A stretch of DNA of 64,000 nt from NCBI GenBank assembly GCA_000004695.1, contig CM000151.3:2880001-2944000 (forward strand), read 5' to 3'. The notes beneath the pieces were generated by a model. The model did not search any database, was not told the origin of the DNA, and saw nothing but the letters and a program-made list of their open reading frames with translations. A program made the position numbers and the translations under genes. Origin of the DNA: Dictyostelium discoideum (taxonomy: Eukaryota). Positions 3,211 through 13,160 of this stretch are shown here, piece by piece. Numbering within the stretch: the stretch's first letter is position 1; each line of letters begins with the position of its first letter.

Positions 3211-3823
3211 ATGTTTAAATCTTTTGATGGATTAAAATTATCGAATTCAGAGTTAGAGGGAAGGTATATTATAGCAAATAGAGATATTGACATTGGAGAG
3301 AGTATATTAAAATGTAAATCATATTTTGCAGTTACATGTGAAGATTTTAAAAAGAATAGTTGTTACAATTGTATAAAGTTAATTAAATCACCATCACCTC
3401 AACAAGTACCAAGATGTTTTGGATGTAATGAAGTTTGGTATTGTAGTGAAAAATGTAAACAAGATAATCAAGCAAAACATCAACATTATGAATGTGCATT
3501 TTTCAACAATATAAAATCACCAAAATTAATTCAAAATTCAAAACTCGATTTCGATTCATACTCTGAAATCAGAATAATACTTGGTTTACTCTCAAGATAT
3601 TATCAAGATAAATTATTAAATAATAAATTCAATTCATCAATAATAATAAATAATCAACAAGATGATGAAGAAGATTTTATAAAAGATACATTGGATGGTG
3701 TATTAGATTTAGTAGAAAATGATATAAATGAAGAAACAAATAGTGTAGCAAAAGAATATATTGATAATATTATTGAATATATTATAAATATATTAAAATT
3801 AACAATAAATAATAATAGTAATG

Positions 3824-3913
<90 letters not shown>

Positions 3914-4452
3914 TTGAAGAATTAATTAAATTAATTAGACCATTAATTCAAAAAGTTAGATGTAATCAATTTGGAATTTGGACAAAGAATGATAAATGTA
4001 TTGGTATGGCAGTATCACCAAGTAGTAGTTATTTTAATCATTCATGTATACCAAATTGTGAATCGGTTAGAGATGGTAGTGATATGACATTTAAATCATT
4101 ATTTCCAATTAAAAAAGGTGACCAAATTAATATCTCTTATTTGGCATTAGATAAATCAACTAAAAGACGTAGAGATTATTTGAAATTTGGTTACTACTTT
4201 CATTGTCAATGTCCAAGATGTAATTCAACAGATATTGATCCAACTGGTAAATTAGAGGATTCATTAGATAATTGGATTTCAAAATTTTATTGCCATCAAA
4301 AGAAATGTACAGGTTTATATTATTCAAAATTAAAATTATCACTACAATCATTAACCAACATTGATAATCATGAAATTCAATTATCATGTTCAACTTGTAA
4401 TGATCAATTAATTGTTAATTCAAATTTTTATTTAAATAAACCAAATTATTAA
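3211..4452 (+). CDS. SET and MYND domain (SMYD-type) lysine methyltransferase, copy A, 413 aa, single exon
   Basis: Intact ORF. SET N-region 'GRYIIANRDIDIGESILKCKSYFAV'. MYND finger 'CYNCIK..CFGCNEVWYCSEKCKQDNQAKHQHYEC'. SET core 'NHSCIPNC'. Post-SET 'FHCQCPRCN'. Internal (AAT)30 poly-Asn tract at 3822-3910. Confidence 0.85.
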
Positions 4453-4697: not shown

Positions 4698-5858
4698 ATG
4701 TTTAAATCTTTTAATGGATTAGAATTAAAAAGTTCAGAGAATGAAGGTCGTTATTTAATAGCAACTCGTGATATTCAAATTGGAGAAGATTTATTAAAAT
4801 GTAAATCATATTTTGCAGTTACATCAGAAACTTTAAAAACAACATCATGTTTTAATTGTATTAAACAATTACCATCAGTTATTAAATTATCATTAAAATG
4901 TAATCAATGTAATGAAATTTGGTATTGTAATGAACAATGTAAAAATGAAAATATTAATAAACATCAACATTATGAATGTAAATTTTATAAAAAATTAAAA
5001 TCACCAAAATTAAAAGTTTATCCAAATTTTGATATTGAAACATTTACAGAAATTAGAATGATCGTTGGTTTGTTATCAAGATATTATCAAGATATTTTAT
5101 TAAATAATAAATTTATTGAACAACAATTAAATAACAACAATAATAATAATAATGATAATGAACAATTAACAAATACATTAGATGATGTTTTTGATTTAGT
5201 AGAAAATCAAGTTACAGAAGAATCAAATCCAGCAGCAAAAGAAAGAATTGATTCAATCGTTGAATTTATAAGTGAATTGTTTAATTTAGTATTATTAGGG
5301 TCAACAACAACAAAATCAATAATTAATAATGATGATAAAATTGAAATGATTAGGAAAATTAATGAAAAAAGTAGATCAATTATACATAAAACTAGATGTA
5401 ATCAATTTGGAATTTGGACAAAGAATGATAAGTGTATTGGTGTTGCAGTATCACCAAGTAGTAGTTATTTTAATCATTCTTGTATACCAAATTGTACAGA
5501 TGTTAGAGATGGTAGTAATATGACATTTAAATCATTATATCCAATTAAAAAGGGTGACCAATTGACAATATCTTATATTGAATTAGATCAACCAATACAA
5601 GATAGAAAAGATGAATTAAAGTATGGTTATTACTTTGATTGTATTTGTCCAAGATGTAATGGTGATTCAAATTCAATTGATTCAATGGATAATTGGATTT
5701 CAAAGTTTTATTGTTCTCAAAAGAAATGTACAGGTTTATATTATTCAAAACCAATGATACCAATTTTAAATACATTAACTTCAAATCATGAAATTCAATT
5801 ATCTTGTTCAAATTGTAATAATATTAATATAGTTACACCTTCTTTTTTTAATAAATAA
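4698..5858 (+). CDS. SET and MYND domain (SMYD-type) lysine methyltransferase, copy B, 386 aa; tandem paralog of 3211..4452
   Basis: Same architecture and the same N-terminus 'MFKSF(D/N)GL' as copy A. 'NHSCIPNC' and 'CICPRCN' are present. Lies about 250 bp downstream of copy A in the same orientation. Confidence 0.85.
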   Translation: MFKSFNGLELKSSENEGRYLIATRDIQIGEDLLKCKSYFAVTSETLKTTSCFNCIKQLPSVIKLSLKCNQCNEIWYCNEQCKNENINKHQHYECKFYKKLKSPKLKVYPNFDIETFTEIRMIVGLLSRYYQDILLNNKFIEQQLNNNNNNNNDNEQLTNTLDDVFDLVENQVTEESNPAAKERIDSIVEFISELFNLVLLGSTTTKSIINNDDKIEMIRKINEKSRSIIHKTRCNQFGIWTKNDKCIGVAVSPSSSYFNHSCIPNCTDVRDGSNMTFKSLYPIKKGDQLTISYIELDQPIQDRKDELKYGYYFDCICPRCNGDSNSIDSMDNWISKFYCSQKKCTGLYYSKPMIPILNTLTSNHEIQLSCSNCNNINIVTPSFFNK

Positions 5859-6385: not shown

Positions 6386-6678
6386 CTAATTTTCTAATTG
6401 TACATCACAATTATCTCTACATTTTTGCATTAGTACAACGCATTTTGACCATTCAGTTTTACAAAATTCTCTATTATCATCAACACAATCACTATAACAA
6501 TCACCATTTATTCCATTTGATGATATTATCATTAAATAAACCACTAAAAAAATACAAAAAAAGAGAGTTAATTTCTAAAAGATTAAAATTTGTTTTTTAA
6601 AAAAAAAATATTTTATTGTTAATAAAAAATATGTATAAATAAATAAAAAAATTGTTAAAAAAAATTTTATTTTACCAT
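6386..6678 (-). CDS. Secreted 6-Cys mini-protein A, 63 aa (signal peptide plus C-x3-C-x7-C-x6-C-x6-C-x3-C)
   Basis: Exon 1 is only the ATG (6676..6678), followed directly by a GTAAAA donor. Acceptor 'cttttag' precedes exon 2 (6386..6574, stop included). Protein: MKLTLFFCIFLVVYLMIISSNGINGDCYSDCVDDNREFCKTEWSKCVVLMQKCRDNCDVQLEN. Without the splice the ORF has no signal peptide and falls below the ORF-track cutoff. Confidence 0.5.
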
Positions 6679-7020
6679 TATTCTATTTTTATTTTGTTTC
6701 AATAATTAGATTTTATAAATTAAAAAAAAAAAAAAAAAAAAAAAAGTTAAAACCCTTGTCAAATTTAAAAATCTTTTTTTAAATTTTTGTTTTTATTTTA
6801 AAATAAAAAAAAAAAAAAAAAAATATTAAAAAACAAAAAAAAAAAAAAAAATAATAGTAATTAATGGGTGGTATTAATAAAGTTTTTTTCATATAATTTC
6901 ATTAATATTTATACCAAAAACACCCACAAAAAAGGAGATCTTATTAATTATTACCATTTTTTGAAATTATATACATAATTACCCCCAACAAAAAAAAAAA
7001 AAAAATAATTATTTCTTTTT

Positions 7021-7056
<36 letters not shown>

Positions 7057-7232
7057 CTTTTTTATTTATTTTTAAATTTGATTAAAAAAAAAAAAAAACA
7101 TATTATTACATAAAAAATTTAATTATTATTTTTTTAAATTTATATTTATTTTTAATTCATTGATATGTTTTAAAATTTTCATTTATTATTATAATTATTA
7201 TAATTGATATTATTATTATTTTTAAAATTTAT

Positions 7233-7424
7233 TTATTTTTGTTCAATACCAAATTCAATATTACAACTTTCTTGGCATTTACCAACAACTACATCACAAA
7301 GAAATTGATCCTTTCCACAGTATCTAGTATTCTTTTTGAAGCAATTTGCATAACATTCATTCACATTACCAAGGGAAAAACTTATTGTTATTATAATAAT
7401 AATAATTACAATCAAGATATTCAT
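7233..7424 (-). CDS. Secreted 6-Cys mini-protein B, 63 aa; paralog of 6386..6678
   Basis: ORF in track: MNILIVIIIIIITISFSLGNVNECYANCFKKNTRYCGKDQFLCDVVVGKCQESCNIEFGIEQK. The Cys spacing is identical to peptide A (gaps 3,7,6,6,3) and there is an N-terminal hydrophobic signal. Confidence 0.55.
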   Translation of the reverse strand: MNILIVIIIIIITISFSLGNVNECYANCFKKNTRYCGKDQFLCDVVVGKCQESCNIEFGIEQK

Positions 7425-7646
7425 TTTGTTCTACAATTATAAAATTTTGTTGAGAAAATAAAAAAAAAAAAAAATAAATGAAAATAATTAATATTTTAAA
7501 ACGTTATTATAAATAATACCACATTATCCATACCATTTTTTATAGTATACTATTATTTTTTTAATTTTACTGTTAATTTTAAATTTATAATTATTAAATA
7601 AAAAAATAAAAAAAAAAACTTTGTTTTTATAGTGATAAAATTAAAG

Positions 7647-8074: not shown

Positions 8075-8174
8075 NNNNNNNNNNNNNNNNNNNNNNNNNN
8101 NNNNNNNNNNNNNNNNNNNNNNNNNNNNNNNNNNNNNNNNNNNNNNNNNNNNNNNNNNNNNNNNNNNNNNNNNN
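8075..8174. other. Assembly gap (100 x N)
   Basis: A run of exactly 100 'n' characters. Confidence 1.
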
Positions 8175-10794: not shown

Positions 10795-11352
10795 ATGATA
10801 TACAACATATATATATTTAATAAAGACGGAACATGTATATATTATGAAGATTGGAATAAAAAAAAACAGTCTCAAAATCAATCAGAGGATCAAAAATTAT
10901 TGTTTGGTATGCTTTATTCCTTAAAAGCATTTATTACTTCATCATCACCAAAAAAGTATGTTTTTTTTTTTTTACTCCTATTTATATTTACATTTATAAA
11001 AAAAAAAAAAATACCACAAATTCTGGTATAAAAAAAATTAATTATAATGACTAATAATCTTTTTTTTTTTTTTTTTCCTTTTAGAATTGACGATAAAACA
11101 GGATTTCATTGTTATAAAACATCAACTTATAAATTACATTATTATGAAACATTATCATGTATTAAATTTATAATAATGTCTGACCCAAATGTCCCTGACC
11201 TTAGAGATGATTTAAAAAAGATATACAGTCAAATTTTTGTAGAATATGTTATAAAGAATCCAATCTATAAACATGGTACAACAGTAAAATGTGATACTTT
11301 CATTAATCAGTTAAATTTATATTTAAAACAAATGCCTTCTTTTTCAAGTTAA
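10795..11352 (+). CDS. trappc1: TRAPP complex subunit 1 (Bet5/TRAPPC1), 2 exons: 10795..10955 and 11085..11352
   Basis: Exon 1 'MIYNIYIFNKDGTCIYYEDWNKKK..LFGMLYSLKAFITSSSPKK' matches human TRAPPC1 '[38 protein letters not shown]'. Exon 2 'IDDKTGFHCYKTSTYKLHYYETLSCIKFIIMSDPN..LKKIYSQIFVEYVIKNP' matches '..FQTSRYKLHYYETPTGIKVVMNTD..ALYVELVVKNP'. Donor AA|GTATGT; acceptor ttttag|A; phase 2. Confidence 0.9.
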
Positions 11353-11949: not shown

Positions 11950-13160
11950 GTTTTTTAAAAAAAAAAAAAAAAGAAAATGATAATTACTTTGTAGAAGAAA
12001 TCACTAACCAAACCAGTACCCATATTCTTAATTGCAGTAGCAGAGTATTTCTATAATAATAATAGTAATAATAAAGAAAAATTAATTTTATTAGTTCCAG
12101 GTTTTTTTTTTTTTTTTTTTTTACCATACAAAAAAAAATAATAATTATAATAATAATAATAAAACTTACTTGGAATTTACTTGGAATCTTATTTAATGAA
12201 ACACAATTTTTTCCACTTTTATCAACACCAGCCCATGCTAAAAAGAATTTTAATTGACAACCTACACCTTCATCACATCTCATATCATCGAATTTGGTTG
12301 CACATTGATTATCGATACAGGAATCACAATTTTTACAAATTGAAGTATCTCTATCACCATCCCAAACTGCATCCACAATGGCACCATTATCAAGTTGGAA
12401 AATGATAGTGAAATAGCTGACAAATGTTCTTGTACTAAATTCAAAGATATGTTTTGGTGGCAAAATGATTGGTTCCAAAACTGTTGAATTATAATTTTCT
12501 ACTTTTTGGTAGGTTGCTGTGGTTATGTCTGTCACGTTTTGGCATGCTTTATCTGTACTAACAACGACTGAACCATTTGTAAGAGTTTCTTGACATGGTA
12601 CATCAACAAGTCTACTTGTGAAAGATGTTACATTTTTAGAATATGGAATCTCTGCCCAAACTGTATAACCTTCTACTTCTCTATTTTTAAAAACGTTTCT
12701 ATTTTTATTTGTTTCATTTAAATATTGAATAAGTCCATTTGCTTTATGTATTTTAAAACAAATAAATAAAATTAGTATATATTAAATTATAAAAAATTTT
12801 AAAATTAATTTTTTATTTTTTTCAATACTTACCACTGAATTTAATAGTTGAAAATTCGTCGACTCTTGGATGAAAATCAGCAGTTGCTTCGAAACCAGAT
12901 TGATTATTTCTAATGTGGAATCTAATGAATGACCAATCATATCTATTGTATCTGTGGTCTGTCCATGAGGAATTTGATAAATCTTTTGTATTCATAAAAT
13001 TTTGATCTCCTATATTAACGACATTTGGTGAACCAAGGAGCATTGTACCATTTTCAACGTACCCAAGTTGTAAATCTGGTCCTCTAACAATCTGACCATT
13101 TATTAAATTTATGAAAAATATTATTTGAATTATTATGAAAATTGAATATATGAATTTCAT
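11950..13160 (-). CDS. Secreted, N-glycosylation-rich, Cys-containing protein of unknown family. Exons 12833..13160 and 12170..12741, plus a short terminal exon near 11950..12050 whose acceptor is unresolved.
   Basis: ATG at 13158-13160. Signal peptide '[22 protein letters not shown]'. Exon 1 donor G|GTAAGT (phase 1); acceptor cataaag|CA. Exon 2 is open through '..[35 protein letters not shown]' to the donor CAA|GTAAGT, with a second in-register GTAAAT donor 12 nt upstream. Many N-x-S/T sequons. Confidence 0.55.

Follow-up and report, generated by a model that had tools for sequence, protein, structure and literature searches.

Introduction

Helical hairpins with paired CX3C or CX9C motifs and a disulfide ladder are found in the small Tims and Cox17-like proteins, which lack an N-terminal hydrophobic signal and are oxidised by Mia40 in the mitochondrial intermembrane space. 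The CS-α/α toxins, such as the scorpion κ-KTx toxins (hefutoxins), are small secreted two-helix hairpins that are cross-linked through CX3C...CX3C motifs. They are basic peptides of ~22–28 amino acids (aa) from venom glands and contain two disulfides. The α-hairpinins of plants, including EcAMP1, luffin P1, the vicilin N-terminal hairpinins and nigellin-1.1 (PDB 2NB2), are Arg/Lys-rich helix-loop-helix peptides of ~40 aa with facing CX3C motifs, one per helix, and are cut from vicilin or multi-module precursors. Their cysteine arrangement is described by a 4C motif, C-X3-C-X(4-20)-C-X3-C (where X is not Cys), or by a 6C motif, C-X3-C-X3-C-X(4-20)-C-X3-C-X3-C (PMC11591084). Their two helices are joined by ladder disulfides, C1-C4 and C2-C3, of which nigellin has three. 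Here, we describe two neighbouring tandem paralogous genes, copy A and copy B, on the minus strand of a 64,000-nucleotide (nt) stretch of Dictyostelium discoideum AX4 chromosome 2 (contig CM000151.3, positions 2,880,001–2,944,000; 21.7% G+C), which is referred to as the window. Each gene appears to open with an exon that contains only the start codon. It is likely that both genes encode peptides that lose a signal peptide, are secreted as disulfide-linked helical hairpins, are co-induced late in development and act outside the cell.

Two paralogous genes with one six-cysteine framework

A preliminary description of this DNA, made from the sequence, had proposed two paralogous 63-aa minus-strand open reading frames (ORFs) with an identical six-cysteine framework. 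Both ORFs were found at the expected places, but the distance of ~750 bp given between the genes shortens to ~554 bp when counted from the copy B stop codon to the copy A ATG. The pattern C-x3-C-x7-C-x6-C-x6-C-x3-C is present with exact spacing in both copies. A six-frame scan of the whole 64-kb window, also with relaxed spacing, located it in copies A and B only, and it occurred in none of 200 windows simulated with a first-order Markov model of the window. The six-cysteine motif pair is beyond chance. In a single pairwise BLASTP comparison (E=3e-9), A and B are 23% identical with 57% positives over 60 aa, and the likeness therefore extends past the cysteines.

Copy B corresponds to DDB_G0273255/DDB_G0273585 and matches Q557F9 (Q557F9_DICDI) exactly. 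Its two locus tags lie on one 8.48-Mb contig, in the segment of chromosome 2 that is duplicated in AX3/AX4. AX2 is not known to carry this duplication. Copy A is represented in the AX4 annotation only by DDB_G0273395, a 48-aa model without a signal peptide that starts at an internal Met (MIISS...). This model (P0004) is 100% identical to residues 16–63 of the spliced copy A product. These AX4 models and the D. firmibasis model RB653_010647 are labelled hypothetical or uncharacterised, and a gene ID search found neither gene named in the main text of searchable papers. An exact-sequence look-up of P0001 and P0004 for transcript-derived evidence returned no gene on record in the contig collection. 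When copy A, copy B and the copy A orthologue of D. firmibasis were scanned against Pfam, no family was assigned. The sole match, a sub-threshold one to ETRAMP on the hydrophobic N-terminus, was discarded.

Gene structure and annotation

The locus was compared among five genomes, consisting of AX4, two D. cf. discoideum assemblies (cfY and cfZ; loci L001 and L002), D. firmibasis (L003) and D. citrinum (L004). The D. citrinum locus was found through synteny with the neighbouring TRAPP/Bet5 gene. In copy A, the preliminary description had placed a splice directly after the start codon. The ATG|GTAAAATA donor is unchanged and the AG|AAA acceptor is kept in 5/5 genomes, which upholds the splice, although the intron has 101 nt instead of 98. 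The AX4 leader contains no other ATG, and without splicing the first AUG reads MVK*. The acceptor TAG doubles as the in-frame stop that opens the downstream ORF. The intron is rich in indels and has 101, 117, 105 and 111 nt in AX4, cfY, cfZ and D. firmibasis, respectively, with length differences that are not multiples of three. Splicing would yield a 63-aa product, MKLTLFFCIFLVVYLMIISSNGINGDCYSDCVDDNREFCKTEWSKCVVLMQKCRDNCDVQLEN, with MKLTLFFCIFLVVYLMIISSNGINGDCYSDC...QLEN at its ends. The unspliced ORF contains 52 codons from a GTG or 48 from the internal ATG, and not 49 as first described.

The stretch between the copy A acceptor and the internal Met is in frame and hydrophobic in the five genomes. 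The peptides encoded by the 5′ part of exon 2 are KLTLFFCIFLVVY, KLTLFFYIFLVVY, KITIFFCIFLVIY, KLTLFFCIFLVVVF (with a 3-nt indel) and KSKLFYFFFLLFI, and the only indel in this part is that of 3 nt in D. citrinum. Comparison thereby lends strong support to the view that copy A would require the splice right after its ATG to gain a signal-like N-terminus. The current AX4 model, DDB_G0273395, implies instead that copy A is translated as annotated into a 48-aa cytosolic Cys-rich protein, and that the upstream ATG|GT is irrelevant or part of an intron in the 5′ untranslated region (5′-UTR). The internal Met that this reading needs is found in AX4, cfY, cfZ and D. citrinum. D. firmibasis lacks it (ISIIISS in place of LMIISS), yet its copy A ORF is under purifying selection, and the spliced ATG is thus the sole usable start there. 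The 14 codons before the internal Met remain in frame and hydrophobic in all genomes with a 3-nt indel at most. Moreover, paralogue B carries a predicted signal peptide at the homologous position, and six conserved cysteines in ladder spacing suit an oxidising compartment. Translation of copy A as a 48-aa cytosolic protein is very improbable.

The preliminary description had assigned an intron after the ATG to one copy only. Such an intron is found in copy A as described, but copy B contains one too, of 103 nt. The copy B junction AAAAATG|GTATG is unchanged in AX4, the two D. cf. discoideum genomes, D. firmibasis and D. citrinum. There is no ATG within the 62-nt leader upstream of exon 1, and the first AUG without splicing reads MVWIMWYYL*. 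The acceptor, which ends at 7431, is conserved, and its TAG again doubles as the in-frame stop that opens the ORF. The intron measures 103, 109, 100 and 81 nt in four genomes. The annotated ORF (7424..7233) encodes 63 aa, MNILIV...GIEQK (in full, MNILIVIIIIIITISFSLGNVNECYANCFKKNTRYCGKDQFLCDVVVGKCQESCNIEFGIEQK), and the AX4 product is probably a 66-aa protein, MNKMNILIV...GIEQK. In D. citrinum, the annotated start codon is ATT (Ile) and the sequence reads MNKINILIV..., so the upstream ATG with its splice is the only copy B start in that species. The stop codon and the GIEQK tail of copy B are conserved, and the changes there within the D. discoideum complex are all synonymous. In D. firmibasis, the one-codon exon and the intron are part of the annotated orthologue, RB653_010647 (P0005, MNKMNKMIV...), from a MAKER run that took Trinity transcripts of developmental mRNA sequencing as evidence (PMC11193728).

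Both genes thus combine a donor at the ATG, an in-frame acceptor, an indel-rich AT-rich intron and an orthologue without any other start. Between AX4 and D. firmibasis, the exon 2 coding sequences are 83% (A) and 85% (B) identical without gaps; the introns are 53% (A) and 43% (B) identical with 20 and 32 gap columns, respectively. Because copies A and B share this structure, the one-codon first exon would be older than the A/B duplication. Classical Dictyostelium promoters contain a TATA box and an oligo(dT) run, followed by the transcription start. The TATA and oligo-T layout upstream of copy B (Table 1), which has the equivalent ACTATAAAAACAAAGTTTTTTTT in D. firmibasis, places the ATG at 7536 as the first AUG of the mRNA. 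A literature search yielded nothing relevant on introns directly after the start codon, or on small ORFs, in Dictyostelium.

The NCBI annotations of the two D. cf. discoideum assemblies contain models that fuse the two copies (KAM9984574.1 and KAM9997520.1, at L001 4001-5020 and L002 4001-5097; P0002, 110 aa, and P0003, 114 aa). In this reading, A and B are one gene for a two-domain protein, in which the C-terminal tail of copy B is spliced into copy A through a ~700-nt intron (TTT G|GTATTG at ~7249 to TTTTTTTAG|TG at 6546/6545). The required GT and AG are present in AX4, cfY, cfZ and D. citrinum. In D. firmibasis, both the donor (TTTGGAGTA; GGAGTA) and the acceptor (TTTTTAC|TC) of the fused model are lost, while the ATG|GTAAAATA...AG|AAA pair is retained. 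The fused model also conflicts with the conserved TAA and GIEQK tail of copy B. Its intron would be ~5 times as long as the two ~100-nt introns at the locus and would span both a TATA/oligo-T promoter and a 140-bp block that are conserved (see below). Half a signal peptide (VVYLMIISS) would also be left inside the fused protein. The fused gene was rejected as scarcely credible on account of the splice sites lost in D. firmibasis, the retained B tail and the promoter-like elements inside the intron.

Further annotation errors were observed at the locus. The preliminary description had expected copy A to be missing from annotation. This is the case in D. citrinum, where both ORFs are intact and neither copy is annotated (L004 6560-7800). 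In the other genomes, copy A is truncated (AX4), fused (D. cf. discoideum) or replaced by a bogus 16-aa out-of-frame MAKER model within it (D. firmibasis L003 7096-7146). The one-codon exon accounts for the faulty models in all five genomes.

Selection and family size

Proportions of nonsynonymous (pN) and synonymous (pS) differences were obtained from Nei–Gojobori counts between AX4 and D. firmibasis. The pN and pS values are 0.045 and 0.479 for the copy B core (ratio 0.09) and 0.079 and 0.398 for the copy A core (ratio 0.20). The signal regions show values of 0.190 and 0.183 (B) and 0.228 and 0.347 (A). These values indicate purifying selection, not fast evolution, of the mature cores and drift of the signal regions only, contrary to the preliminary view of the products as rapidly evolving peptides. 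A and B differ by pS 0.73 and pN 0.42, and their split is evidently old.

Profile and word-index searches of 5.8 billion proteins and of 1.84 billion representative proteins, the latter with a full HMMER profile, returned only Dictyostelium orthologues and P0006. The latter is a tandem-repeat protein with a chance match to 'CRDxxDV' and was rejected as a homologue. A third, unannotated family member of 98 aa, MKKTIIIFMILSLISDLVNSKGYSCYGNCIKAYESECLAFPTKCQVYENSCKIDC..., was observed in D. firmibasis between Bet5 and copy B (CM069770.1, L003 4703..4999, plus strand). It contains the same six-cysteine spacing and a long Asn/Ser-rich C-terminal tail. Upstream of it lies AAAAAAAGG|GTAATC...TTTTTAG|AAAACA, which looks as if an ancestral ATG|GT start had mutated to AGG and left a 5′-UTR intron. 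No orthologue of the third member was seen in the AX4 window or in the D. cf. discoideum or D. citrinum loci. The AX4 window contains an assembly gap of exactly 100 N between copy B and the Bet5/TRAPP gene, and a counterpart of the third member, or any other content of the gap, would escape notice.

The Bet5 neighbourhood is kept only within the clade of D. discoideum, D. citrinum and D. firmibasis. Rearranged versions without a six-cysteine ORF occur in D. purpureum and Polysphondylium violaceum; given the rearrangement, absence from these two species is uninformative. Of the genomes compared, only those of D. discoideum, D. citrinum and D. firmibasis contain the family, which appears as a lineage-restricted orphan family.

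Predicted products

The hydrophobic, signal-like N-termini noted in the preliminary description were seen in both copies and resemble the n-, h- and c-regions of a signal peptide under a crude pattern rule, which was used instead of SignalP for signal features and for cleavage after S-x-G. Eleven sequences begin with a basic start (MK/MNK) that is followed by 12–19 uncharged hydrophobic residues, and nearly all of them satisfy the rule. The signal regions of the A and B orthologues end in S-x-G, as SLG|N/D in B and SNG or SSG|I/V in A. The copy A preprotein would accordingly divide into MKLTLFFCIFLVVYLMIISSNG|INGDCYSDC...QLEN. Predicted mature B has 44 aa and a net charge of 0 to -1, and predicted mature A has 41–45 aa (41 in AX4) and a net charge of -2 to -4.

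The N-terminal segment could instead stay uncleaved, which would make the products type II membrane-anchored mini-proteins that display the hairpin at the cell surface or within the lumen. The hydrophobic runs, with 12-residue Kyte–Doolittle means of up to ~4, are at the long end for cleaved signals. However, S-x-G just after the hydrophobic core is kept in both paralogues and in all species and fits the -3/-1 rule. The signal regions also evolve faster than the cores (pN 0.19-0.23 versus 0.045-0.079), as expected for a discarded segment. Anchoring is unlikely, and cleavage is the preferred reading.

AlphaFold2 models built from 3–4-sequence alignments have mean predicted local distance difference test (pLDDT) scores of 86.9 (B) and 83.4 (A). 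The predicted fold runs from a helix through a kink and a short helix to a turn, which precedes a long helix. The C1 and C2 residues are located on helix 1, C3 just precedes the turn, C4 just follows it, and C5 and C6 are positioned on helix 2 at i+7 and i+11. The cysteine spacing is therefore i, i+4, i+12 with a kink in helix 1 and i, i+7, i+11 in helix 2. This spacing suggests a disulfide ladder of C1-C6, C2-C5 and C3-C4.

A Foldseek search against the PDB yielded no matches, and one PDB sequence match of 13 residues (E=0.46) was dismissed as chance. The best small structural matches were the plant α-hairpinins, including six-cysteine nigellin-1.1. The predicted models share with them a helix-loop-helix fold of ~40 aa and a facing CX3C motif on each helix, with a possible third disulfide rung in the Dictyostelium peptides. 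The inner cysteines differ, however, with x7/x6 rather than x3/x3 spacing (+8/-7 versus +4/-4), and neither the 4C nor the 6C motif describes the Dictyostelium peptides, in which the outer CX3C pairs are 21 residues apart with two cysteines between them. The Dictyostelium peptides are single-domain products with their own predicted signal peptide and are neutral or acidic, unlike the precursor-derived, basic α-hairpinins. They come from an amoebozoan rather than a plant host and show no sequence homology to α-hairpinins (Pfam, PDB and 1.84 billion proteins). The likeness is most likely a convergence, and the peptides are structurally similar to α-hairpinins without being family members.

Membership in the twin-CX3C small Tim/CHCH group was rejected, since no zf-Tim10_DDP or CHCH match was obtained at E<=10 and an N-terminal hydrophobic signal is present. 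In contrast to small Tim/CHCH proteins, the peptides have a predicted endoplasmic reticulum (ER)-type signal and a third cysteine pair. No homology to the CS-α/α toxins was detected.

Expression and upstream elements

Developmental expression had been named in the preliminary description as a check on the two genes. DDB_G0273255 and DDB_G0273395 are both listed in sheet filter_UP of Additional file 7 of the RNA sequencing study of Rosengarten et al. 2015 (PMC4403905). A column count that was checked against empty header columns places both genes in UP_Hr18_rapid and UP_Hr20_gradual. Both are listed as up-regulated at 18 h (culmination). Their listing as up-regulated genes implies that both are transcribed and co-induced late. 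The period of 16–18 h is marked by a concerted shift at culmination, with sharp rises of the prestalk genes ecmA and ecmB (PMC4403905). A search for expression and cell-type data in the supplements of PMC6198379, PMC6650454 and PMC9117722 did not recover the gene IDs.

A conserved non-coding block of ~140 bp is located between the two genes (Table 1). Its identity to AX4 is 96% in cfY, 94% in cfZ and 79% in D. firmibasis, against 44-52% in the flanking intergenic sequence, and in the two D. cf. discoideum genomes the block is as conserved as coding sequence. A core 22-mer (6934-6955) is single-copy in the window and occupies the orthologous position in L001-L004. The block holds the G/T-rich boxes TTGGGGGT and TGTGGGTGT, which we assume to resemble GBF G-boxes, and a third motif, AAAAAATG|GTAATA. 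Both small ORFs that overlap the block are broken by indels. A non-coding RNA was rejected, with no Rfam match at E<=1 and folding z-scores of -0.02 and -0.67. The conserved block is probably a cis-regulatory module or developmental enhancer of copy A. A TATA-like box with an oligo-T run closer to copy A (Table 1) is its putative core promoter. A plus-strand DUSE-like element, ACCCACAA, lacks conservation in D. firmibasis and was set aside.

Neighbouring genes

Directly downstream of copy A, on the opposite strand, lie tandem paralogous ORFs of 413 and 386 aa. The 413-aa ORF contains a long poly-Asn tract, and orthologues of the pair in related loci carry a Pfam SET match. Synteny of the pair extends to D. 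citrinum, D. firmibasis and D. cf. discoideum. On the other side of copy B, the TRAPP subunit gene of the Bet5/Sybindin family served as the synteny anchor. Another ORF with a signal-peptide-like N-terminus was observed on the minus strand, and in the D. firmibasis locus a nearby gene matches Pfam PF28132 (named DDB_G0273449). Small secretory genes seem to be numerous in this chromosomal region.

Table 1. Positions in the window of copies A and B, their upstream elements and neighbouring features
Feature	Position	Strand	Description
Tandem paralogous ORF	3211-4452	+	413 aa
Tandem paralogous ORF	4698-5858	+	386 aa
Copy A exon 2	6386..6574	-	AAA TTA ACT ... TAG
Copy A intron	6575..6675	-	101 nt, 93% A+T, GTAAAATA...TCTTTTAG
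Copy A exon 1	6676..6678	-	start codon alone, ATAATG|GTAAAATA
TATA-like box and oligo-T run	6745..6774	-	GATTT(A/T)TAAATTTGACAAGGGTTTTAAC; identity to AX4 0.80-0.97, four genomes
Conserved non-coding block	6866..7006		~140 bp between B and A, ~190-330 bp upstream of copy A ATG
Copy B exon 2	7233..7430	-	AAC AAA ATG AAT ... TAA
Copy B intron	7431..7533	-	103 nt, GTATGG...TTGTAG
Copy B exon 1	7534..7536	-	start codon alone, AAAAATG|GTATGG
Copy B upstream TATA and oligo-T	7599-7640		CACTATAAAAACAAAG, then ~20-T run
Assembly gap	8075-8174		100 N
TRAPP subunit gene, Bet5/Sybindin family	10795-11352	+	142 aa, two exons
ORF with signal-peptide-like N-terminus	12822-13160	-

Discussion

The comparisons and models are consistent with one course of events for both genes. 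Each transcript would contain a short leader, an exon with only the ATG, a ~100-nt AT-rich intron and an exon 2 that begins right after the in-frame TAG of the acceptor. Splicing would link the first AUG of the mRNA to the ORF and produce a preprotein of 63–66 aa with a basic n-region (MK/MNK), a hydrophobic core of 12–19 residues and a c-region that ends in S-x-G. Cleavage after S-x-G would free the mature peptides, with 41 aa in A and 44 aa in B, which would fold in the ER into a helix-loop-helix hairpin with three disulfides and would then be secreted. Both genes would be induced together at ~16–18 h, the onset of culmination, and copy A would probably be driven by its conserved upstream module and TATA/oligo-T promoter. 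The peptides may then act extracellularly in the forming fruiting body, which is the step held with the lowest confidence. Signal-peptide cleavage, secretion and the biological role are read here from sequence features and models.

Several points weigh against this proposal. We infer the actual splicing of A and B in AX4 from the comparison among species. A collection of ~15 billion proteins, transcript-derived sets among them, did not contain the spliced 63-aa copy A; of seven spliced or extended forms, none was found in it. The uncharged hydrophobic runs reach 19 residues, a length unusual for a cleaved signal, and would allow a signal anchor. The disulfide ladder was drawn from cysteine spacing. 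The expression columns were assigned by counting tabs in a text rendering of the sheet.

The peptides might be antimicrobial or defence peptides of the α-hairpinin type that shield spores or the fruiting body against bacterial and fungal attack. Their nearest small structural matches, the plant α-hairpinins, are a defence family, and the peptides are secretory, disulfide-rich and made late, as the sorus forms. Their charge does not fit this role, however. Mature B is neutral (~0) and mature A is acidic (-2 to -4; ~-4 for copy A of AX4), and this argues against the classical cationic kind. The preliminary description had suggested antimicrobials among its candidates. Moreover, the orthologues are under purifying, not diversifying, selection, and no sequence homology to any antimicrobial peptide family was found in Pfam, profile and PDB searches. 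A defence role is therefore improbable. Because the peptides are neutral or acidic, we favour a protease-resistant ligand, an inhibitor or a matrix-associated peptide over a membrane-lytic antimicrobial.

In a more speculative and rather doubtful extension, the peptides would represent a convergent amoebozoan three-disulfide α-hairpinin scaffold that serves as an extracellular culmination factor and belongs to a late secreted peptidome partly hidden by one-codon exons. If this were true, candidate roles would include a signal or inhibitor for terminal spore or stalk differentiation, or protection of the sorus. Some peptide signals of the fruiting-body stage are still genetically unassigned.

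Small lineage-specific Cys-rich secreted families are common in eukaryotes, and the family is of moderate interest in that respect. For annotation, DDB_G0273395 would gain a signal peptide and DDB_G0273255/DDB_G0273585 probably three residues in AX4, the wrong fused models in the two D. cf. discoideum assemblies are flagged, and unannotated genes are added in D. citrinum and D. firmibasis. The D. citrinum copies and the third D. firmibasis member, all of them missing from annotation, suggest that more such genes exist, and ATG-only first exons may systematically conceal small secreted proteins in Dictyostelium. The locus would extend the disulfide-stapled helical hairpin, otherwise described mainly from plant defence peptides and animal toxins, to Dictyostelium, where the two peptides are candidate extracellular factors in fruiting-body formation.

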